A DNA stretch of 61,573 bases from a virus (Duplodnaviria > Heunggongvirae > Uroviricota > Caudoviricetes). Position numbers and translations under genes: made by a program. Shown here piece after piece: positions 3,435-26,994 of this stretch. The notes beneath the pieces were generated by a model, which saw only the letters and a list, made by a program, of their open reading frames with translations, had not been told where the DNA came from and searched no databases. The stretch is taken from positions 1 through 61,573 of the IMG/VR virus record IMGVR_UViG_2778261122_000001. The stretch is one strand, 5' to 3'. How positions within the stretch are numbered: position 1 is the stretch's first letter; each line of letters opens with the position of its first letter.

Positions 3435-5992
3435 CGCCCACCTCCGGAGAACAGACCACCATCACGCATCTGCCCGGTCACAACATCCATTGCCGCCTTA
3501 CGGGCTACGTCATAAACAGCCTTCAGCGCCTGTGGCCCTATCTGACCGTTCGTGCCGTCGTTGTTAATCACCACATGGTTATTCTGCTCAAACGTCCCGG
3601 ACGCCTGCGACCGACTGTCCGCCATGCTGCCCGGTGTACCGACATAACCGCCGGTGGCATAGCCGCGCATCAGCCGGTAAAGATTCCCCACGCCAATCCG
3701 GCTGGTTGCCTCCTTCGTGAAGACAAATTCACCACGGTGAACAATCCCCGCTGGCTCATATTTGCCGCCGGTTCCCGTAAATCCTCCGGTCGCAAAATGG
3801 AGTTTCGCCGCAGCTGCCTGAATGGCTGTACCGCCTGACGCTGATGCGCCACCACTGGCAGCACCGCCAATGGCGCTGCCGATACTCCCGACAATCCCCA
3901 CCATTGCCTGCTTAAGCAGAATTTCTGTCATCATGGACAGCACGGAACGGGTGAAGCTGCGCCAGTTCTGTTCACTGCCGGTCAGCATCGCCGCCATATT
4001 CTGTGCAATACCATCAAAGGTCTGCGTGGCTGCACTTTTAACCTGCGACATACTGTCCGTGGCGCTCTCTTCCCACTCACTCCAGCCTGACCTGAGGCCT
4101 GCCATCCAGCTCCCGCGAAGCAGGTCTTCAGCCGCCCAGGTCTTTTTCTGCTCTGACATGACGTTATTCAGCGCCAGAGGATTATCGCCATACTGTTCCT
4201 TCAGGCGCTGTTCTGTGGCTTCCCGCGCTGCCTGCCGGTCAGTCAGCCCCCGGCTTTTCGCATCAATGGCGGCCCGTTTTGCCCGTTGCTGCTGTGCGAA
4301 TTTATCCGCCTGCTGCGCCAGCGCATTCAGGCGCTCCTGATACGTGACCTTATCGCCAAGTGCAGCCAGCTGGCGTTTGTACTCCAGCGTCTCATCTTTA
4401 TGCGCCAGCAGGGATTTCTCCTGTGCGGACAGCTGGCGACGTTGTGCCGCCTCCTCCAGTACCGCGAACTGACTCTCCGCCTTCCACAAATCCCGGCGCT
4501 GCTGGCTGATTTTCTCATTCGCTCCGGCATGCTTCTCCAGCGTCCGGAGTTCTGCCTGAAGCGTCAGCAGGGCAGCATGAGCACTGTCTTCCTGACGATC
4601 GCCCGCAGACACCTTCACGCCGGACTGTTTCGGCTTTTTCAGCGTCGCTTCATAGTCCTTTTTCGCCGCCGCCATCAGCGTGTTGTAATCTGCCTGCAGG
4701 ATTTTCCCGTCTTTCAGTGCCTTATTCAGTTCTTCCTGACGGGCGGTATATTTCTCCAGCGGCGTCTGCAGGCGTTCGTAAGCCTTCTGCGCCTCTTCGG
4801 TATATTTCAGCCGTGACGCTTCGGTATCGCTCTGCTGCTGCGCATTTTTGTCCTGTTGAGTCTGCTGCTCAGCCTTCTTTCTCGCGGCTTCAAGCGCAAG
4901 ACGGGCCTTTTCACGATCATCCCAGTAACGCGCCCGCGCTTCATCGTTAACAAAATAATCATCCTTGCGCAGACTCCAGATGTCGTCCGCTTTCTTAAAC
5001 GCAGCCTCTGCCTTAATCAGCATCTCCTGCGTGGTATCAGGACGACCAATATCCAGCACCGCATCCCACATGGATTTGAATGCCCGCGCTGTCCTGTCTG
5101 CCCAGGTCTCCAGCGTACCCATGTTCTCTTTCAGGCGGCGGGTCTGGTCATCAAACCCTTTCGTCGCGGCCTCGTTCGCCGCCTGCAATGCCCCGGCTTC
5201 ATCGCCGGAACGCTGCAACTGAGCAACATACGCAATCTGCTCCGCCGTCACGTTATGGAACTGACGTGCCATCGCTGTCAGTCCCGACGTCGGGTCTGTG
5301 GTCAGCTTCCCGAAGGCTTCAGCGACCTTGTCCACCTCCACGCCGGATGCAGAGGAGAAACGCGCCACACTCTGGCTGATCGCCTCAAACTGCTCACCAC
5401 CACGCACACCTGCATTCACCAGCGCCGTCAGTGACTCGCTGGTCTGGTTAAACGTCAGCCCTGCCGCCTGCCCGGCTCTGGACAGGACCAGCATACGATC
5501 TGCCGTCAGACCCGACTGATTGCCGGAAAGGACCAGCGTTTTGTTGAAATCGGACAGGGTTGAGTTGCCCTGATACCAGGCATACGCCAGCGCACCGGTC
5601 GCCACCGCCAGCGAGGTGGCCCCGACCATCGGCAGGGTGATCGCACCGGCAAGCCCTCTGAACATGGGGATCATCCCGCCGAAGGAGTCCTTCACCTGAC
5701 CACCCTGTTGCAGCAGGATCAGCCACGGACTTTGCCCGCCTGCAAGCTGCGTGGCCACGTCGGTGAACTGCGCAGGCAGCATACGCATGGCGGCTTTATA
5801 CTGCCCGACGGAAATCCCCGCTTTCTGTGCAGCCAGTGCCTGTCGGCTCAGCGACTGTTCAACGACTGCCGCTGTTTTTTTCGCATCACTTTCCGTACCG
5901 GAAAAATGACGCCTGACTCTGGCCATCTGCTCGTCAAATCTGGCCGCATCCAGACTTAAATCAACGACCAGATCGCCTACCGGTTCAGCCAT
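3431..5992 (-). CDS. H: Tail tape measure protein H
   Basis: 853 aa, same length as lambda gpH; long coiled-coil middle, Gly-rich C-terminus. Confidence 0.9.
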   Translation of the reverse strand: MAEPVGDLVVDLSLDAARFDEQMARVRRHFSGTESDAKKTAAVVEQSLSRQALAAQKAGISVGQYKAAMRMLPAQFTDVATQLAGGQSPWLILLQQGGQVKDSFGGMIPMFRGLAGAITLPMVGATSLAVATGALAYAWYQGNSTLSDFNKTLVLSGNQSGLTADRMLVLSRAGQAAGLTFNQTSESLTALVNAGVRGGEQFEAISQSVARFSSASGVEVDKVAEAFGKLTTDPTSGLTAMARQFHNVTAEQIAYVAQLQRSGDEAGALQAANEAATKGFDDQTRRLKENMGTLETWADRTARAFKSMWDAVLDIGRPDTTQEMLIKAEAAFKKADDIWSLRKDDYFVNDEARARYWDDREKARLALEAARKKAEQQTQQDKNAQQQSDTEASRLKYTEEAQKAYERLQTPLEKYTARQEELNKALKDGKILQADYNTLMAAAKKDYEATLKKPKQSGVKVSAGDRQEDSAHAALLTLQAELRTLEKHAGANEKISQQRRDLWKAESQFAVLEEAAQRRQLSAQEKSLLAHKDETLEYKRQLAALGDKVTYQERLNALAQQADKFAQQQRAKRAAIDAKSRGLTDRQAAREATEQRLKEQYGDNPLALNNVMSEQKKTWAAEDLLRGSWMAGLRSGWSEWEESATDSMSQVKSAATQTFDGIAQNMAAMLTGSEQNWRSFTRSVLSMMTEILLKQAMVGIVGSIGSAIGGAASGGASASGGTAIQAAAAKLHFATGGFTGTGGKYEPAGIVHRGEFVFTKEATSRIGVGNLYRLMRGYATGGYVGTPGSMADSRSQASGTFEQNNHVVINNDGTNGQIGPQALKAVYDVARKAAMDVVTGQMRDGGLFSGGGR

Positions 5993-17296: not shown

Positions 17297-17623
17297 TCAG
17301 GGACGTGACGGCGTAAAGATAAATTGTCTCTTCACTCCCTGACAGGGACGATTCTTTTCAAATCGCCATTTCGCCATGGCCTTCACCACTTCATCACGAA
17401 ACAAATTATGAGGCTCTGAGCGGAGAAAAACGATCCGTGTCACAGTCCCATCAGCACCAATATCGAACTTAACCTCAACCAGTCCCTTGATATAATTTGC
17501 TGCAGCATATTCCGGATATCGTGGATACACCGTCACTAATTGCCGGGGCTCATCAGCTTTTTGCTGCGAGCATCCCACTGCCAGGACAGATAACAGAAAA
17601 AGTAGTAAAAGGCGTCTTTTCAT
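17297..17623 (-). CDS. Lipoprotein with TonB C-terminal-like domain (lambda right-end envelope protein type)
   Basis: Start trimmed to MKRRLLLLFLLSVLAVGCSQQ lipobox; position between bor and cos. Confidence 0.5.
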   Translation of the reverse strand: MKRRLLLLFLLSVLAVGCSQQKADEPRQLVTVYPRYPEYAAANYIKGLVEVKFDIGADGTVTRIVFLRSEPHNLFRDEVVKAMAKWRFEKNRPCQGVKRQFIFTPSRP

Positions 17624-18105: not shown

Positions 18106-18399
18106 ATGAAAAAAATGTTGTTTTCTGCCGCTCTGGCAATGCTTATTACAGGATGTGCTCAACAGACGTTTACTGTTGGAAACAAACCGACAGCAGTAAC
18201 ACCAAAGGAAACCATCACCCATCACTTCTTCGTTTCGGGAATTGGACAGGAGAAAACTGTTGATGCAGCCAAAATTTGTGGCAGCGCAGAAAATGTTGTT
18301 AAAACAGAAACCCAGCAAACATTCGTAAATGGATTGCTCGGTTTTATTACTTTAGGCATTTATACTCCGCTGGAAGCGCGTGTGTATTGCTCACAATAA
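18106..18399 (+). CDS. bor: Bor lipoprotein (serum-resistance lysogenic conversion protein)
   Basis: Start trimmed to MKKMLFSAALAMLITGCAQQTFTV; matches remembered lambda Bor; opposite strand to late genes as in lambda. Confidence 0.85.
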   Translation: MKKMLFSAALAMLITGCAQQTFTVGNKPTAVTPKETITHHFFVSGIGQEKTVDAAKICGSAENVVKTETQQTFVNGLLGFITLGIYTPLEARVYCSQ

Positions 18400-19796: not shown

Positions 19797-20012
19797 TTAC
19801 TCTTCCCGTGCAGCCTTACGCTTGTCTTCTTTAATCTTGAAATAAAGGTTTGTCAGATACGTCAGCAAGCCAAATACCAGACTACCCAGCACACCTATTG
19901 CCGCCCACTGTGAGGGCGTGACTTTATCGAGCAACTGTAAAAACCAGTACCCGGCACTACCTGCTGAGGTGCCATAGGCGACACCCGTTGTTAACTTATC
20001 CATGGATTTCAT
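19797..20012 (-). CDS. S: Class II holin (phage 21 S-type pinholin)
   Basis: 71 aa, two TM segments, MKSMDK dual-start motif, charged C-terminus. Confidence 0.85.
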
Positions 20013-20078
20013 AACCCCACCTCGCAGATGCGGGTGCTGTGTAATGGAAATAAAAAGGCCACCTGCGTGGCCACCAGA

Positions 20079-21131
20079 TTATTTCCCCACCAGCTCGTTT
20101 ATCTCTTTCACTGTCTGGTTAAACCGCTCTGACTCAAGCTCAACACCTAAGGCCCGACGCCCCAGCGCCATTGCTGCTTTTATTGTGGAACCGGATCCCA
20201 TAAAAAAATCAGCAACCAGATCACCAGGTCGACTACTGGCATTGATTATTTGCCTGAGCATATCCGCCGGTTTCTCACACGGATGTTTACCCGGGTAGAA
20301 CTGAACGGGTTTATGCATCCAGACATCGGTATAAGGCACGGAGACTGATACGGAGAAATAGCGCCGGAGAGATTTAAACTCATCCAGCAATTCAGAATAT
20401 TTGCGATTCAGTGAATCATAAGATGCCACCAGCTGGTGGTGTGGTTGTTCCAGTTGTTGTTCCTGAAACTTCTCTGCCGCTATACGGGAAAACAGTGCCT
20501 GTAACTTCCGATAGTCAGCCTCATTCGGCAACTGCCACTGACTGGCACCAAACCAGTGGGAAACCATATTTTTCTTACCTGTGGCTTCGGCAATTTGTTT
20601 TGCCGTTATACCCAGTTCGGCACGAGCATCCCTGAAATACGATATCAGCGGTGCCATTATGTGCTGTTTGAGTTCCCTTTCTTTTGCCGCATAGCTGTCA
20701 CTTTTGCCGCGATATGGCCCCTGGTAATGTTCAGCAAACAGAACGCGCTCTGTGGCAGGAAAATATGCGCGCAGACTTTCTTTATTACACCCATTCCAAC
20801 GTCCGGACGGCTTCGCCCAGATGATATGGTTAAGCACGTTGAAACGTTCACGCATCATAATCTCAATATCAGATGCCAGGCGATGCCCACAGAACAGGTA
20901 AAGGCTTCCGGCAGGTTTCAATACCCGCCAGAACTGGGCCAGACAGTGGTCCAGCCACTTAAGGTAATCTTCGTCCCCTTTCCACTGATTGTCCCAACCG
21001 TTGGGTTTCACCTTGAAGTAAGGCGGATCGGTAACAATCAGGTCAATGGAATCATCAGGCAGGGACTGAATAAAATGCAGGCAATCAGCGTTGATTAAAT
21101 CAACACTGTTTATTTTTACAGTATTTTTCAT
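20079..21131 (-). CDS. DNA methyltransferase (amino-MTase, DPPY motif)
   Basis: DLIVTDPPY near N-terminus and FFMGSGST AdoMet motif near C-terminus (motif IV before motif I). Confidence 0.8.
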   Translation of the reverse strand: MKNTVKINSVDLINADCLHFIQSLPDDSIDLIVTDPPYFKVKPNGWDNQWKGDEDYLKWLDHCLAQFWRVLKPAGSLYLFCGHRLASDIEIMMRERFNVLNHIIWAKPSGRWNGCNKESLRAYFPATERVLFAEHYQGPYRGKSDSYAAKERELKQHIMAPLISYFRDARAELGITAKQIAEATGKKNMVSHWFGASQWQLPNEADYRKLQALFSRIAAEKFQEQQLEQPHHQLVASYDSLNRKYSELLDEFKSLRRYFSVSVSVPYTDVWMHKPVQFYPGKHPCEKPADMLRQIINASSRPGDLVADFFMGSGSTIKAAMALGRRALGVELESERFNQTVKEINELVGK

Positions 21132-21281
21132 GGATCAGTAAGCGTAACTCTGGTAGGCTCACTCTGCTTTTGCGCTAAAGCAGTGGGCCGTGGTTCGCTT
21201 GTGACCAGTAAGCATGAGCGAATGGCTGGCAGGTGCTACCAACACCCACCAGCCGCCCATTTTCACAGCAGGAAACCGCCA

Positions 21282-21509
21282 TTACTGGCAGCGTCTGAAT
21301 TTATTCCCGTACCCGCCGTTATCCTTCGCCAGACCCGCCAGAACTAACTGAGTCAGTATTAACTGGCACCGGGCTTCGCTTACTCCGGTAGTTCTCGTCA
21401 TCATGCGTGGCGTTACCCACTTGTCAGCAGGTAAGAAATGAAGGACTGCGGCGGCGGTTTCTGTCATATCTTGCTGTTTTAGCATGTCTTTTTCCCTTCT
21501 GGTTAACAT
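21282..21509 (-). CDS. Hypothetical small protein
   Basis: 75-aa ORF upstream of the MTase; no recognised family. Confidence 0.3.
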   Translation of the reverse strand: MLTRREKDMLKQQDMTETAAAVLHFLPADKWVTPRMMTRTTGVSEARCQLILTQLVLAGLAKDNGGYGNKFRRCQ

Positions 21510-21755
21510 GACATACCAATAACTCTTGTCTAAAAAGCCAGCAAGATAAAAAGTCAGTATTCACGACCACCAGCGTGTTTACTGTACTGCACCAAGTTTA
21601 CAGGTACAAAAAAACCGCTCAGCGGCGGGTTTAAGTTGTGTGGCGAAGTAACCATTCTTAACAGCATATTTGATTTTTTACGATTGTAAACGGTTGATTA
21701 TTCATCTCCAATAAAAATAATTGTGTGGGTATGCCCTTAACAATGGATAAGAAAC

Positions 21756-22202
21756 ATGAATAAAATGACTGTACTATTACTTAGCGCAACTATCATTTCA
21801 GGTTGTACTTCTTCCGTACCATTGATAAAGAAAACTCAATCAGGAAAACCTGAGGGGGTTTATCAAAATACGACAAAAGATAAAGTCAAAGATGCCCTTG
21901 TGAATTACTGCAATAGTAGAGGGTTGATAATTTACAACGCGGATAACAGCAGTGTTATATGTGGTAAAGAACTGGAAGGCGGCTCTGCTGTTTTCGGACA
22001 AATGTTAATCGGCAATGCCTATTCAACAACCCCGGTATCAAAAGTCAGATTTACTATCGCTCAAGTTAATAACGATACAAAAGTGTGGGCCGATATGTGG
22101 ATGGAAACTCAAATGGCAATGGGGCAAGTACAACAAATGGCTATAACAGACAACGCAAGCAAAAACACTATCCAACAACGTCTTGATGAGTTAAAACCTT
22201 AA
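21756..22202 (+). CDS. Lipoprotein of unknown function (insertion gene)
   Basis: MNKMTVLLLSATIISGCTSS signal peptide with lipobox; lies in AT-rich insertion. Confidence 0.6.
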   Translation: MNKMTVLLLSATIISGCTSSVPLIKKTQSGKPEGVYQNTTKDKVKDALVNYCNSRGLIIYNADNSSVICGKELEGGSAVFGQMLIGNAYSTTPVSKVRFTIAQVNNDTKVWADMWMETQMAMGQVQQMAITDNASKNTIQQRLDELKP

Positions 22203-22429
22203 GTCAATTAATTACATAAAATGGGGAGAGAAAATCGACTCCCCACACATTAAACTGATTTAATTACCTGTACTAGCTATAACTCCAACTGACAATTTGA
22301 GTAACCAGAACGAAATCAAGTTTGACAGCCCGCTTTGAGAGAAAAGCAAAAAATACGCTGCTGTACGGCTGATAAAAGAAACTAAGAATGCAAATTACCA
22401 GCCTGAAGACCATCGTTATGCCAGTACCA

Positions 22430-23692
22430 CTATATATCCCAGATCTCGCCATTATAAAGATGCTCGCTAATCTTTGGTGGATTTTTCTTAACATTAGGGT
22501 GACTCGCCAAAATGAGTCTTAATGTCCTGATAGCAACATAGGCCTTTATAACAATATCCCTTTGTTGTTTGAAATACTCCTGATTGAAGTTATTGTTATC
22601 GATGGCATGTGCTGGTTTTTGTCTAAGTTGCCTTACCTTTCTAAAGGTGTCAATCATATCTTTAACTGGCGCAGGATCTGTTGGCTGGAAATATTTATCA
22701 AGCCATGACTCAAGTATTTGTATAGTGCCTTTAGGCCTTACGACTATTTTCCCATCCTCGCGCTCCTCTTCAATTTCAAGCTCCACATCATCCTCGAAGA
22801 ATTTCTTATTAAGATTGTCGGACATCATTTTATCCAACAAAAGCATGAAATTATTAAATTCTGAACGAGTTGGTCGCAAAAGAAACCCGAACTCTTTAGG
22901 CATGTCATCGCTGTAATCTTTTCTAAAAAGTTCAGCCTTTCCTATTAACACGCTCATTTTATTAATTATTTTAAGTTCTTCCGTAAATGCACTAAAAATA
23001 GAAATTTTAGTCCCCCAAGCTCCTAATATGCTTGCAGCATAGTAATCGGGATGCAACTTTATATCTCCTTTTACTTCTTTCGCTGCCCAAACATTTTGGT
23101 GTTCAGGACTGAGATCACTCAGGTATCTCAAGAAAACTGCAACATATCTATTTAGACTGTCATCATAAGCAAACCCAAATGTTTTAAGCAATATTTGATC
23201 GTGTTCAGGAATATTGTCTGATTCATAATACTCATCCGTAATAGATATTTCCCCATGTATAAAGTCTGTAAAGTATGAATAACGTGGATCATTTCGGTAG
23301 TATTCCAAAACAGACAAATCAAAAGTTCTATAGTCAAATTGTCCCGCACCTCTTGCTAGCTCCATTTCATATGGTGACTTACTATAAGCAGAAAGCTTAC
23401 TAGATTTGGCTAGCATATTTTCATGGGGATATAAGCATATGTAATCTAAACTCTCTGAATCATCGAAATTCTTAAGGATATTATCCTTGGGGATTTTTGA
23501 AAACGCTTTAATATGAGGGTTATCCCCAAAACAAGCAGTTAAAATATCATCTTCGATTCCTTTTCTAACCAAAACTTTGAAAGTTTCGCTTTTGATATCG
23601 AAAAGACCATCTAACTTATAAATAGGCAATCCATTAAAATCACCTGATGAAAAATATTGTTCCTCGACTATTTCATATATTTCTTTAATCAT
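22430..23692 (-). CDS. Hypothetical 420-aa protein in AT-rich insertion downstream of Q
   Basis: Long uninterrupted ORF with AT-rich codon usage unlike flanking genes; no motif recognised. Confidence 0.6.
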   Translation of the reverse strand: MIKEIYEIVEEQYFSSGDFNGLPIYKLDGLFDIKSETFKVLVRKGIEDDILTACFGDNPHIKAFSKIPKDNILKNFDDSESLDYICLYPHENMLAKSSKLSAYSKSPYEMELARGAGQFDYRTFDLSVLEYYRNDPRYSYFTDFIHGEISITDEYYESDNIPEHDQILLKTFGFAYDDSLNRYVAVFLRYLSDLSPEHQNVWAAKEVKGDIKLHPDYYAASILGAWGTKISIFSAFTEELKIINKMSVLIGKAELFRKDYSDDMPKEFGFLLRPTRSEFNNFMLLLDKMMSDNLNKKFFEDDVELEIEEEREDGKIVVRPKGTIQILESWLDKYFQPTDPAPVKDMIDTFRKVRQLRQKPAHAIDNNNFNQEYFKQQRDIVIKAYVAIRTLRLILASHPNVKKNPPKISEHLYNGEIWDI

Positions 23693-24093
23693 CTCACAAT
23701 CCCAATATATGGTTGTTTACAATTTGTTTAAATAGTCACCAGCCAAGCTAAGCGATTGTATATTCATTACGTTCGAAACTATTTATTGTGTAACAATATC
23801 AGCTAAGTTACTGGCTATAGTATATGAGTTTAAAATTCTGCGCTCTCATAAGCATACTATATATAGTTATACCCCGAGTGATTGTGCTAAGCAACTGATT
23901 GCGCCCTACTAGATTTTATTTTTATGGTAAAATGTAGACCTCACTTCTAGCTTGGAGTTATTCCCTATTTATTAAGTACTACGTCCATATATGGCATAGT
24001 GCTACCTGTCAGCTCAGGTTTGGCACTGTGCCATAATAGCTGTTTCAGCTCACGTCTGAACAAATATAAATAACCCCCTCACTTAGAAGTGTT

Positions 24094-24459
24094 CTAACGG
24101 TCCATTTCTAGCTCAATTTCTAACATCATTAACATGCCATCAACTACACCTTCAGCCTTTTGCAATAAACGCCCAACCCAGCAATCAGAACGCCCATGTT
24201 TACGGGCAAGCGCCATAAACGTCATACCACCTACATAATAATCCACTAATAAATCGTGCAAATCGCTGTTGTTCTTTTTCAGGCGAGCCATGCACCCACA
24301 AATGATCATCGCGTCATCGTCACAACATTGCGGGCGGGATTTTACTTTTGAAGGGATTAGTCCTTTAAATCCTGCAGCAATAGACGACCAGGTGACATCC
24401 TCGTGATTATTTGCCACCCATGCACCCCAACGTTCAAGAACCATTTGAATATCACGCAT
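24094..24459 (-). CDS. Q: Late-gene antiterminator Q, phage 82/QuuD type
   Basis: Start trimmed to [14 protein letters not shown]; Cys-rich core as in remembered DLP12 QuuD. Confidence 0.8.
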
Positions 24460-24476
24460 CAACTTTCTCCACAAAA

Positions 24477-25472
24477 TCAGGCCAGCACGCCAATTGCCAG
24501 CGCACGATCGATAAAACGAAATATCAGCTCCAGCTGGGAGCCATACATCTCTTCAAATGCCACGGTATCCGCATGCAGCTCGTCGTGATGCTTTCTGCAC
24601 AAAGGCAACACAAAGAGGTCATGCGCTTTTGTACCCATTCCACCCTGACCGTGACCTATCAGGTGGTGGGGATCATCAGCAGGCTTTCCACAACATGCAC
24701 ACGGCTGTGTCTTAACCCAGCGCGTGTACTTTTCATTAACCCAGCGGCGACGTTTTGGGCGTAACATAAAAGACTCCGGCGACTCTGGATCCACTTTCAG
24801 CGCCAGCACCTTTTTCGCTTTATCCTGGATAATGCTGGTGGCAGGAACCGAAGGAACAAGGTCACTCTCCCGGGTGACAGACGGCACAACAGGCTTCGGT
24901 AATCTCAGTGCCTTACGGGCTGCACTTTCCGGTAAGGCATCCGCCAGGTCATTACGAACCAGCCACCAGCACAGTTCCGGCATTGTCACAACGTGACTAT
25001 CATCAAAACCGAGATCACGGCGCACAACAGATAACACCCAGCGGGCACAGCTATCCGTTGCCATTGATTCCAGCCGTTCCGTGAACTGATCGCGCAGCTG
25101 GTTATCGCAGTGCCAGCACAGACGGATTGCGCCCGGCGCGTGTCGCATTGTGGTCATGTTCTCGCTGTGCCAGTCGGAATGAGGCCACTGGCAGCCTTTT
25201 TCACGAAGTAACCAGCTTTCAAGACATTCCACGCCACCAGCACGACGGATCACTGCCTCATTGCGGAACACGGCCCGAACGGCAGGATCATCCGCCAGCG
25301 GTTGTGATGCCGCCGGAACGGCACCACTGGCGAAAGATGAATAACGTTCCGGCTCAGGCTCCAGCAGGACACGCCCCTGCATAAACAGGGGCATCAGCTC
25401 TGAACCTGGCCTGAACAATACGATCCCCATACGCGGGGCAATTTCAGGGGTCAGTAGTGCTCTCACGGTCAC
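24477..25472 (-). CDS. nin-region protein with C-terminal Cys/His-rich HNH-like motif
   Basis: 331 aa; C-terminal [28 protein letters not shown]...CRKHHDELH. Confidence 0.55.
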
Positions 25473-25473
25473 C

Positions 25474-26271
25474 TCAATGAACGGTATCGAGCAGCTTTAA
25501 CAGCTCAGGGAATCGGGATTCGAAGAAATGCGGCTGCGTCTCGCGCGGATTTGCGGGACTGGTGATATTCTTGCCGAACATGCAGCCTTTCGCTGTCAGC
25601 GACCAGAATTTTTTGATGTTGTTAATCGCGGTACGGCTGTATCGTTCGCGCTGCTCGACGATCCCCAGCTTCACCATCTGGTGATATGCCTGATTAGCTG
25701 TCAGGCGGATACCATACTGCTTCAGCAGTGCACTCAGTGACAGCGTGGGGCGGCTTGAGCCATCAGGCGCGTCAGCAGGAGCATCAATGGCATAGCGCGG
25801 TGCCAGATTCGGTAAGCCAACAGCCTCCTGGAGTTTCTGACAGGCACCAAGCACTGAAGAGTTAGACAGGTTTAATTCCCGGTGCATAAAGTCCAGCAGA
25901 ATCACACCAGCCTGCATCTTGTCAGCAGCCTGTCCGGATAATTTTTCCGGTGCGCTGGTTACCATGTCGAAAGTACGGATCACCTTCAGATGGAATGACG
26001 GGCTGATCCACATTGCATAGGCATACACCAGTTCTTTGCAGACATACGTCCCCTGGTTATTTCCGCCACGAATAACGTTAACTGGCTCTATATTGACCGA
26101 GTTGCAAATCTGCAACTCGCTTATTAAACGCTCAGTTTGCTCATTGCGGAGCCAGAATGCAGGCTTATGCTTATCCAGAGAACCAGCAGCCCTGTGCAGA
26201 TCGTTCAGGCTGTAACGCCCATAAGCATCACGACGAACTTCAATACCATCAATGACCATCAGATTATTCAT
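25474..26271 (-). CDS. KilA-N domain protein
   Basis: N-terminal KilA-N-like pattern (YSLNDLHRAAG...KPAFWLRNEQT). Confidence 0.65.
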   Translation of the reverse strand: MNNLMVIDGIEVRRDAYGRYSLNDLHRAAGSLDKHKPAFWLRNEQTERLISELQICNSVNIEPVNVIRGGNNQGTYVCKELVYAYAMWISPSFHLKVIRTFDMVTSAPEKLSGQAADKMQAGVILLDFMHRELNLSNSSVLGACQKLQEAVGLPNLAPRYAIDAPADAPDGSSRPTLSLSALLKQYGIRLTANQAYHQMVKLGIVEQRERYSRTAINNIKKFWSLTAKGCMFGKNITSPANPRETQPHFFESRFPELLKLLDTVH

Positions 26272-26290
26272 ACTTCGTTTCTCCTCTTAA

Positions 26291-26671
26291 TCAGGCGGCT
26301 GCACCCGCCGTTTTCTCGTACTTACTGATAGTTATCTCGACCTTCCCTTCCGGGATAACCGGTCCCCACTCCACCAGCATTCTTTTCACCTGGCTGTCGT
26401 CTTCCCACACACCCGCGTGGGTCAGGGCGTCAAACAGCGCCTTGTTATAGTTGTCCAGATCGCGGATCCGGTTATCCGGAGGAAACAACACGATCTCCAC
26501 TGAAGCAGGTGCCGACGTTGGTTTCGGCAGACGATGTAACTGCTCAACTATTGCTGTGCACGCCGCACTCTGGAATTTTCGCCCCGCCGCGCTTATCAGG
26601 CTCTTACCAGCAAATGCCCCTTTGTTGGGGTAGGTGTTCACGCTGGGTGGAAAAGGCAGAATCAGCGTCAT
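26291..26671 (-). CDS. rusA: RusA-family Holliday junction resolvase
   Basis: 126 aa with the RDLDN catalytic motif and RusA-like size. Confidence 0.75.
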   Translation of the reverse strand: MTLILPFPPSVNTYPNKGAFAGKSLISAAGRKFQSAACTAIVEQLHRLPKPTSAPASVEIVLFPPDNRIRDLDNYNKALFDALTHAGVWEDDSQVKRMLVEWGPVIPEGKVEITISKYEKTAGAAA

Positions 26672-26994
26672 ACTTTCAGCCCCCTCTCATGTAACCAGTG
26701 GGCTGCACGCAGCCTGGCGTTTTCCTCACCAGCAAGCAGTGCGCGGATAATCCCGGCCGCCTCGCTGTCGTCGTCCTTCACCGCGGTATGAAGCGTGATG
26801 CCCCGGGCCACGCCACGCTTTATCGTGATGACGCCTTTTTTCTCCAGTGCGCGAAGATGCTCCACCGCTGCATTCACTGAACGGTATCCCAGCATGGTAG
26901 CCACCTCCTGATTGGTTGGCGGGAAGCCACGTTCTTTCTGGTAAGAAATCAGCATATCCAGCACCTGCTGCTGGCATTGAGTTAACGTCGTCAT
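26668..26994 (-). CDS. LexA N-terminal-type DNA-binding domain protein without peptidase domain
   Basis: Start trimmed to MTTLTQCQQQVLDML; GFPPTNQEVATMLGYRSVNAAVEHLRALEKKGVITI follows the LexA winged-helix pattern; ends at ~108 aa. Confidence 0.65.
   Translation of the reverse strand: MTTLTQCQQQVLDMLISYQKERGFPPTNQEVATMLGYRSVNAAVEHLRALEKKGVITIKRGVARGITLHTAVKDDDSEAAGIIRALLAGEENARLRAAHWLHERGLKV

Follow-up and report, generated by a model that had tools for sequence, protein, structure and literature searches.

An AT-rich single-gene insertion behind antiterminator Q of a lambdoid prophage: a candidate HEPN-type abortive-infection gene

The interval between antiterminator Q and the lysis genes

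The window analysed in this work is a stretch of 61,573 nucleotides from a Caudoviricetes virus (IMG/VR record IMGVR_UViG_2778261122_000001, positions 1 to 61,573), a lambda-like Escherichia coli prophage, and the subject is a gene encoding a protein of 420 amino acids (aa) located directly behind the gene for antiterminator Q. Q was found on the minus strand at 24094..24459 (or to 24474) and was assigned by PF06530 (E value 2e-51) and, as a member of the Q21 family, by PDB 6p18 (E value 7.5e-9). The 420-aa open reading frame (ORF) occupied 22430..23692, stop codon counted, on the same strand as Q and the late genes, and was followed by a convergent ORF of 148 aa on the plus strand (21756..22202; phrog_3152) encoding a lipoprotein with a signal/lipobox (...LLSATIISGC). 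The GC content fell to 0.31-0.40 across approximately 21500-24050, with both flanks at approximately 0.47-0.56 (GC profile of the window). Further downstream, a small gene for a helix-turn-helix (HTH) protein was followed by a DNA methyltransferase gene (20079..21131), which lay ahead of the holin, lysozyme and Rz genes. A first-pass annotation, made from the letters alone, had described the low-GC block, the two ORFs in their orientations and the methyltransferase/lysis genes beyond them, and in all of these it agreed with the measurements.

Alignment with the prophage of E. coli UTI89 (blastn) showed a colinear backbone of 97-99% identity in two parts, 19810-22268 and 24069-26994. The 1,807 bp at 22269..24075 were extra with respect to the UTI89 and PhiR40_1 backbones, both junctions being read directly, and contained the 420-aa gene alone together with approximately 300 bp of its own upstream DNA. 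The insertion started 18 bp past the Q stop codon, ahead of a pre-existing terminator of the minus strand. It was absent from every complete E. coli genome (5,426); in those having the Q-lipoprotein module, the junction between Q and the lipoprotein gene was empty and uninterrupted (185/185). The same insertion recurred in about 22 E. coli draft contigs, each in an identical context. As in other morons, this was extra DNA of deviating GC content (0.31-0.39, against approximately 0.5) between genes that are neighbours in close relatives (UTI89, PhiR40_1 and the 185 genomes with the module), and the 1.8-kb insertion is a later, rare acquisition between Q and an existing terminator. The proposal of an accessory AT-rich cargo between Q and the lysis genes was consequently supported, and the contrary case, a conserved core of this phage group, was ruled out by the 185 empty sites, which also led to the rejection of the site as a general cargo hotspot.

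The two junctions were marked by AATTACC (22262-22268) and AATAACC (24069-24075), an imperfect direct repeat of 7 bp that could reflect either micro-homology serving illegitimate recombination or a target duplication that has degenerated. Apart from this repeat, no terminal inverted repeats, transposase or tandem repeats were found around the insertion, and no attC-like repeat was present at the E. coli copy.

The lipoprotein gene had a different history. It was part of the backbone, within the UTI89-colinear portion (19810-22268), and 185 of the 5,426 complete E. coli genomes had it, as did phages PhiR40_1 and PhiR55_1, always adjacent to Q; the segment 21400-21631 was shared more widely (1,344 genomes). 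Because these 185 genomes carry the lipoprotein gene without the 420-aa gene and with an uninterrupted junction, the former is a separate, older AT-rich moron, fixed in the Q21-type Q module. The reverse situation was seen in Klebsiella, where a cassette 87.6% identical in nucleotides to the window from 23996 to 22330, including 304 bp upstream and 100 bp downstream of the gene, was found without the lipoprotein gene and in unrelated surroundings: a SRAP gene before the cassette, a convergent gene for a CHAT protein, and an rve integrase. At two Klebsiella loci (L009:2917-5049 and L098:2442-4586) this convergent partner encoded 710 aa with a weak CHAT-protease match.

Two AT-rich morons, acquired independently, thus separate Q from the late/lysis genes, in place of the single two-gene insertion first described, since only 22269..24075 was extra. 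A co-acquired, hairpin-bracketed island riding the Q-antiterminated late transcript in the manner of stx is very improbable: both genes are AT-rich and adjacent, and the 420-aa gene points in the same direction as Q and the late genes, but each of the two occurs without the other (the lipoprotein gene in 185/185 complete genomes and two phages, the 420-aa gene in the Klebsiella cassette), which refutes co-acquisition, and stx has another position. The two hairpins supposed to bracket the insert do exist, a few to 10 nt away from where they had been placed, and flank the lipoprotein gene alone. The first is a terminator of the minus strand at 22223..22244 (GGGGAG..CUCCCC followed by AUUUUAU; RNA fold z = -3.3), and the second a short GC stem followed by U7 at 21614..21628, also of the minus strand, which is an annotated terminator in phages Ayreon and SfV.

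The small HTH gene (21282..21509, minus strand; 75 aa, TrmB/MarR-like winged helix, phrog_331) was the first gene past this second, shared terminator, and it is kept in lambdoid phages of differing Q type, including Stx2c and Stx2k phages. A second fall in GC content (approximately 0.40) was seen beyond the lysis cassette, where a homologue of the Bor lipoprotein (PF06291) and a small ORF with a TonB_C domain (17297-17623 and 18106-18399) were moron-like. Rfam returned nothing for 21200-24500 except a sub-threshold match to STnc130 (E value 0.6), which was rejected.

Position relative to stx and putative expression signals

The 420-aa gene had been placed at the position where Stx phages carry stx, and this was not confirmed. 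Where the Q type differs (phages Ayreon, mEp460, cdtI and SfV and the Stx2c and Stx2k phages), the DNA shared with the window reached only to approximately 21631, a span that takes in the terminator as well as the small HTH gene; the mosaic boundary with these phages lies there. The order in the Stx2k phage was Q, small ORFs, the shared terminator, the small HTH gene, a HTH gene, tRNAs and stx2AB, and from this order the slot equivalent to stx is the place of the methyltransferase gene, distal to the small HTH gene and not directly after Q. The methyltransferase slot (20079-21131) corresponded to L103:2376-4699 of the Stx2k phage, with a HTH gene, three tRNAs and stx2AB.

Two candidates for the late promoter pR' were found by sequence pattern: TTTACA-16-TATGCT at 21690-21663 on the minus strand, and another at 24262-24235, inside the 3' end of Q. 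The number of promoter-like matches in the region (13) did not exceed that expected from shuffled sequence (10.8 +/- 3.5). The GC stem and U7 of 21614-21628 lay about 35 nt beyond the first candidate, with an AAGAAT (-10-like) element in between. To judge from its letters, the stretch 21605-21690 looks like a pR'/tR' pair; if it acts as one, it lies downstream of both morons, and both would be outside the late operon.

The non-coding DNA travelling with the gene (23693..23996 on the minus strand, approximately 300 bp) presumably holds its own promoter or leader. It was 85% identical to its Klebsiella counterpart, vs. 79% for the third codon positions of the gene, which suggests that this upstream DNA is probably functional, as promoter or leader. 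No ORF of at least 40 aa and no Rfam family was found in it. Part of it (23838-23996) resembled, at approximately 71% identity (E value 1e-8), an intergenic sequence that 437 E. coli chromosomes carry; in E24377A this counterpart precedes an LprI-family gene by 240-400 bp, and the island to which it belongs also has HNH and GIY-YIG genes. This similarity may reflect a shared regulatory leader or a chance likeness of AT-rich DNA. The terminator at 22223..22244, already present in the empty site, now stands 3' of the inserted gene, and an upstream region of its own together with an existing terminator fits a putative autonomously expressed moron. In the prophage, the gene would probably be transcribed from its own upstream region, with transcription ending at 22244-22223, and on induction read-through from the Q transcript might contribute as well.

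Distribution, mobility and architecture of the 420-aa protein family

A search of 5.8 billion proteins gave 1,196 matches, the best 120 of which were nearly all of approximately 420 aa and 55-100% identical to the query, and an exhaustive profile search gave 1,116 clusters at 50% identity. Relatives of 43-75% identity were found in a broad range of bacteria (Gamma- and Betaproteobacteria, Cyanobacteria, Lentisphaerae, Bacteroidia, Chloroflexi, Acidobacteria, Planctomycetes, the candidate phyla radiation, Atribacteria and Bacillota) and of archaea (Thermoplasmatota, Halobacteria, Methanomicrobiales, Nanoarchaeota, Woesearchaeota and an Asgard metagenome-assembled genome). Their distribution was sporadic: among 185,579 species, with one genome per species, 139 stretches were confirmed as relatives. 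The family was absent from 50,697 phage records and scarce in IMG/VR (2 of 2.9 million contigs) and plasmids (3/72,556); one of the contigs with the Klebsiella cassette was listed as viral in IMG/VR. The gene is under purifying selection (dN/dS, the ratio of nonsynonymous to synonymous substitution rates, was 0.15 with respect to the Klebsiella copy and 0.05-0.10 with respect to distant copies), and all copies were AT-rich (GC 0.35-0.41), whatever the host.

No Pfam or NCBIfam model matched the protein, PHROGs gave only noise (E value 0.046), and PADLOC-DB v2.0.0 gave AbiEii alone (E value 0.017), in agreement with the first impression of an ORF with no recognisable motif. Pfam gave nothing for the family in 10 distant members, and only weak matches to a winged helix-turn-helix (wHTH), with no HEPN, for the consensus and the single domains; a sequence search of the PDB with the single sequence and two profiles gave nothing relevant. 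No published account of the family was found under its locus tag or database name, the integron and defence-screen papers describing other HEPN cassettes. In NCBI and UniRef, the name “AAA family ATPase” or “diverged AAA-family ATPase containing protein” has spread over the family (for example ABM01994.1 and WP_109868231.1). It was rejected: a Walker A motif was present in 1 of 270 members, no search gave a P-loop match, and the label is likely to be an annotation error that started with Ping_0120 of Psychromonas ingrahamii. This name and the prophage location are what would favour a true AAA+ ATPase or an ordinary phage protein for structure, replication or lysis. Both ideas are effectively refuted and were given almost no weight; a routine structural or replication protein, named at the outset as the finding that would overturn the cargo idea, is at odds with the absence from phage records, the rarity in IMG/VR and the lack of any match at E <= 0.001 in the BFVD viral fold search.

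The 420-aa gene behaved as a self-sufficient, horizontally mobile unit, because it had no conserved neighbour and formed a single-gene integron cassette in Vibrio. In Vibrio sp. JPW-9-11-11 the gene (4231-5493 of the locus) was located between VCR-type repeats at 4073-4196 and 5502-5613, within a chromosomal superintegron with at least 12 VCR/attC-type repeats of approximately 90-124 nt between small co-directional ORFs. A single ORF between attC sites was seen for this homologue only. ORF clustering of 84 loci gave no neighbour family common to more than 4 of them, and the genes downstream were heterogeneous, so a conserved partner gene or a fixed downstream effector was rejected. No tandem or multi-copy repeats of the kind found in type III toxin-antitoxin systems were present upstream of the gene, and neither a two-gene nor a type III toxin-antitoxin arrangement was therefore found. 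The E. coli and Vibrio copies stand alone.

Elsewhere the gene was often next to defence genes, its immediate neighbours including bSEFIR/TIR, CAP12-TIR, KAP NTPase/PifA, CHAT, a CBASS cyclase, ApeA-HEPN, PDC-S19, S20, S58 and S66, RelE, integrases and transposases. At a Pseudomonas aeruginosa locus the next gene encoded a CAP12-PCTIR TIR protein, and at another locus (L015) a KAP NTPase. Co-directional downstream genes ranged from AraC, ADH and M20 peptidase to bSEFIR/TIR and domains of unknown function. Single-gene defences, HEPN types included, are documented in integron cassettes, which serve as their reservoir, and single-gene HEPN cassettes of the AbiU2 and AbiV types confer phage resistance from integrons.

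The AlphaFold2 model of the protein (mean pLDDT 88.4, pTM 0.82) was divided into three domains, all encoded on the minus strand. The N-terminal domain was a wHTH (codons ~1-65, 23498..23692). The alpha/beta middle domain (codons ~116-230, 23003..23347) held the most conserved block (ExYRNDPRY, FGF and EHQxxW) and had no detectable structural relative. The C-terminal domain (codons 231-420, 22433..23002) was helical, with a predicted HEPN-like topology: helix 1 at 232-249, helix 2 at 276-290, an insert at 291-340 (short helix, beta-hairpin, helix), helix 3 at 341-357 and helix 4 at 371-396.

In this model an R-x4-H motif (R357-Q-K-P-A-H362; 22607..22624, minus strand) spans the junction of helix 341-357 with the loop 358-370 that leads to helix 371-396. 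R357 and H362 were at least 95% conserved down to 31% identity, as were E239, N244, D287, N293, R354, Q377 and R392 of the same domain, and R[QNS]xxAH was present in 259 of 270 members. HEPN proteins are defined by an Rx4-6H motif in which R is directly followed by a polar residue, and by a second conserved acidic residue in helix 2, typically as Ex3[KR] (Anantharaman et al. 2013, PMC3710099). The R-x4-H of the family, with Q, N or S behind R, was in accordance with the motif, and the C-terminal topology, taken from the predicted model and secondary structure, with the definition in PMC3710099. In fold searches the C-terminal bundle matched several bona fide HEPN proteins, and the most frequent weak Pfam match was PF18730 (HEPN_Cthe2314; 5 of 113 members, best E value 0.0067, sub-threshold). 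It is somewhat more likely than not that the modelled C-terminal domain is homologous to HEPN.

Putative function and relation to known systems

Abortive infection or exclusion was the best-supported part of the first proposal (an abortive-infection, exclusion or virulence cargo), and the 420-aa gene was interpreted as a stand-alone HEPN-type abortive-infection moron of the prophage, with a probability of about 45%. According to this interpretation, a cassette carrying one self-sufficient gene would have landed 18 bp past the Q stop codon and ahead of the existing terminator. Its product would be a single chain of three domains: the winged helix, the middle domain as presumed sensor/regulator, and a C-terminal HEPN-type RNase in which R357-x4-H362 would form a metal-independent active site, probably within a homodimer, the form known from other HEPN enzymes. 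In the lysogen the protein would be made and held inactive by the winged-helix and middle domains. During infection by another phage, these N-terminal domains might sense phage nucleic acid or protein and free the RNase, which would cut cellular or phage RNA; growth would stop, the infection would be aborted and the lysogen population would be protected.

More tentatively, the family may be a new pan-prokaryotic class of single-chain immune sensor-effectors, in which a wHTH and a middle fold absent from the PDB gate a divergent HEPN RNase. Its high conservation would then reflect a universal trigger or target, such as tRNA, rRNA or a translation factor, and the single-gene cassette would move via integrons, islands and prophages.

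Several results weigh against the abortive-infection interpretation. The match to HEPN topology comes from a predicted model and secondary structure. The acidic residues D287, in helix 276-290 (LLDKxxSDN), and E239, in helix 1, are not in Ex3[KR] form; no profile match to HEPN was significant, the family consensus matching no HEPN model, and the only PADLOC match, AbiEii, fell in the wHTH region (residues 18-103). With respect to an anti-phage role, neighbours matching a defence model amounted to approximately 1 in 6 (an estimate of 10-11 of 62, made without a control, so that enrichment is unquantified), and many neighbours were housekeeping genes (AraC, ADH, M20 peptidase). Finally, bacterial and archaeal copies are of fixed length and at least 43% identical, a degree of conservation that is unusual for an immune gene.

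One alternative is a selfish toxin or addiction cassette, or a stress RNase: a HEPN-type RNase with an intramolecular inhibitor that would stabilise the element carrying it (integron array, island or prophage) or answer stress, and would have no anti-phage role in particular. The single-gene integron cassette, the sporadic spread driven by horizontal gene transfer under strong purifying selection, the RelE, integrase and transposase neighbours and the many loci with no defence neighbour all point in this direction. The lack of a partner antitoxin gene and of type III-style tandem repeats upstream, the share of immediate neighbours matching defence models (the same uncontrolled estimate) and a position in the prophage typical of superinfection-exclusion genes argue against it, and it was considered unlikely, though with a real chance of being correct.

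In a non-catalytic winged-helix transcription factor reprogramming host or prophage expression, the other domains would bind a ligand or dimerise and R-x4-H would be structural; the nine C-terminal residues conserved in at least 95% of members resemble an active site, the downstream genes are unrelated across loci, and it is difficult to see why a regulator lacking a fixed target gene would move on its own from bacteria to archaea or back; this reading was considered unlikely. A DNA-targeting, restriction-like or nuclease effector would place catalysis in the middle domain (~116-230) and recognition of foreign DNA in the winged helix. Conservation is densest in the middle domain (including D135, R137, D165, H198 and Q199), its lack of a fold match leaves its function open, and wHTH-nuclease fusions are common in defence; however, no nuclease family or fold was detected, the conserved residues show no PD-(D/E)xK, HNH or GIY-YIG pattern, and there is no methyltransferase partner, so that such an effector was judged improbable.

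If the interpretation as an abortive-infection moron is correct, the family of about 1,100 clusters, for which Pfam, NCBIfam, PHROGs and PADLOC at present lack a model and which is mislabelled as an “AAA ATPase”, would be a new single-gene anti-phage system, spread over archaea and many phyla of bacteria. The E. coli copy is a clean natural gain of a gene, with isogenic empty-site relatives (PhiR40_1, PhiR55_1 and UTI89), and since these relatives exist, the cost and benefit of one moron are directly measurable. The Q-to-lysis interval itself can be re-read as two independent acquisitions, neither of them at the position of stx.

Similarities to several known systems were partial. Regulators of the wHTH-WYL-WCX type (BrxR/CapW) also have an N-terminal winged helix, and the 420-aa gene is sometimes upstream of and co-directional with TIR, SEFIR or KAP genes; unlike BrxR/CapW, it showed no WYL match or Sm-like fold, and its downstream genes were often housekeeping or absent. 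Membership of this group was rejected, there being no WYL domain and no fixed placement upstream of a defence operon. HepT toxins of the type VII HepT/MntA systems (e.g. SO_3166, 5yep; 7ae2/8xdj) are proteins of approximately 130 aa accompanied by a separate MNT antitoxin gene, whereas here the domain is embedded in a 420-aa protein and there is no partner gene. In Csm6/Csx1 effectors, an N-terminal sensor governs a C-terminal HEPN RNase in one polypeptide (PMC3710099), much as proposed for the 420-aa protein, but no CARF or Rossmann domain was detected in the latter, and no CRISPR or cyclic-oligonucleotide partner accompanied it; a CBASS-type cyclase was present once among the 62 neighbours scanned.

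As a genetic element, the insertion resembles the morons of the Q-to-lysis interval of lambdoid phages, such as stx: an extra AT-rich gene, present or absent in near-identical prophages, with an upstream region of its own and a terminator. Other lambdoid phage morons are bor, lom and nmpC of DLP12. The insertion differs from these in carrying a cargo family not represented in any phage record searched and in its location directly after the Q stop codon, stx being distal to the small HTH gene.

The closest similarities were to the single-gene HEPN abortive-infection proteins. The R[QNS]xxAH of the family is close to the RNxxAH of Abi_2-type families. Like AbiD/AbiF (Abi_2), AbiJ, AbiU2, AbiV, ApeA and BxaP (DUF4145), the last a single-gene defence of the HEPN superfamily, the 420-aa protein is encoded by a stand-alone gene on mobile elements, and it shares with them a C-terminal helical domain with R-x4-H and N-terminal domains with a presumed sensing or regulatory role. 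Unlike them, it has no significant match to their Pfam and PADLOC models, it combines a wHTH with a middle domain that has no relative in the PDB, and its family is fixed in length and far more conserved across phyla.

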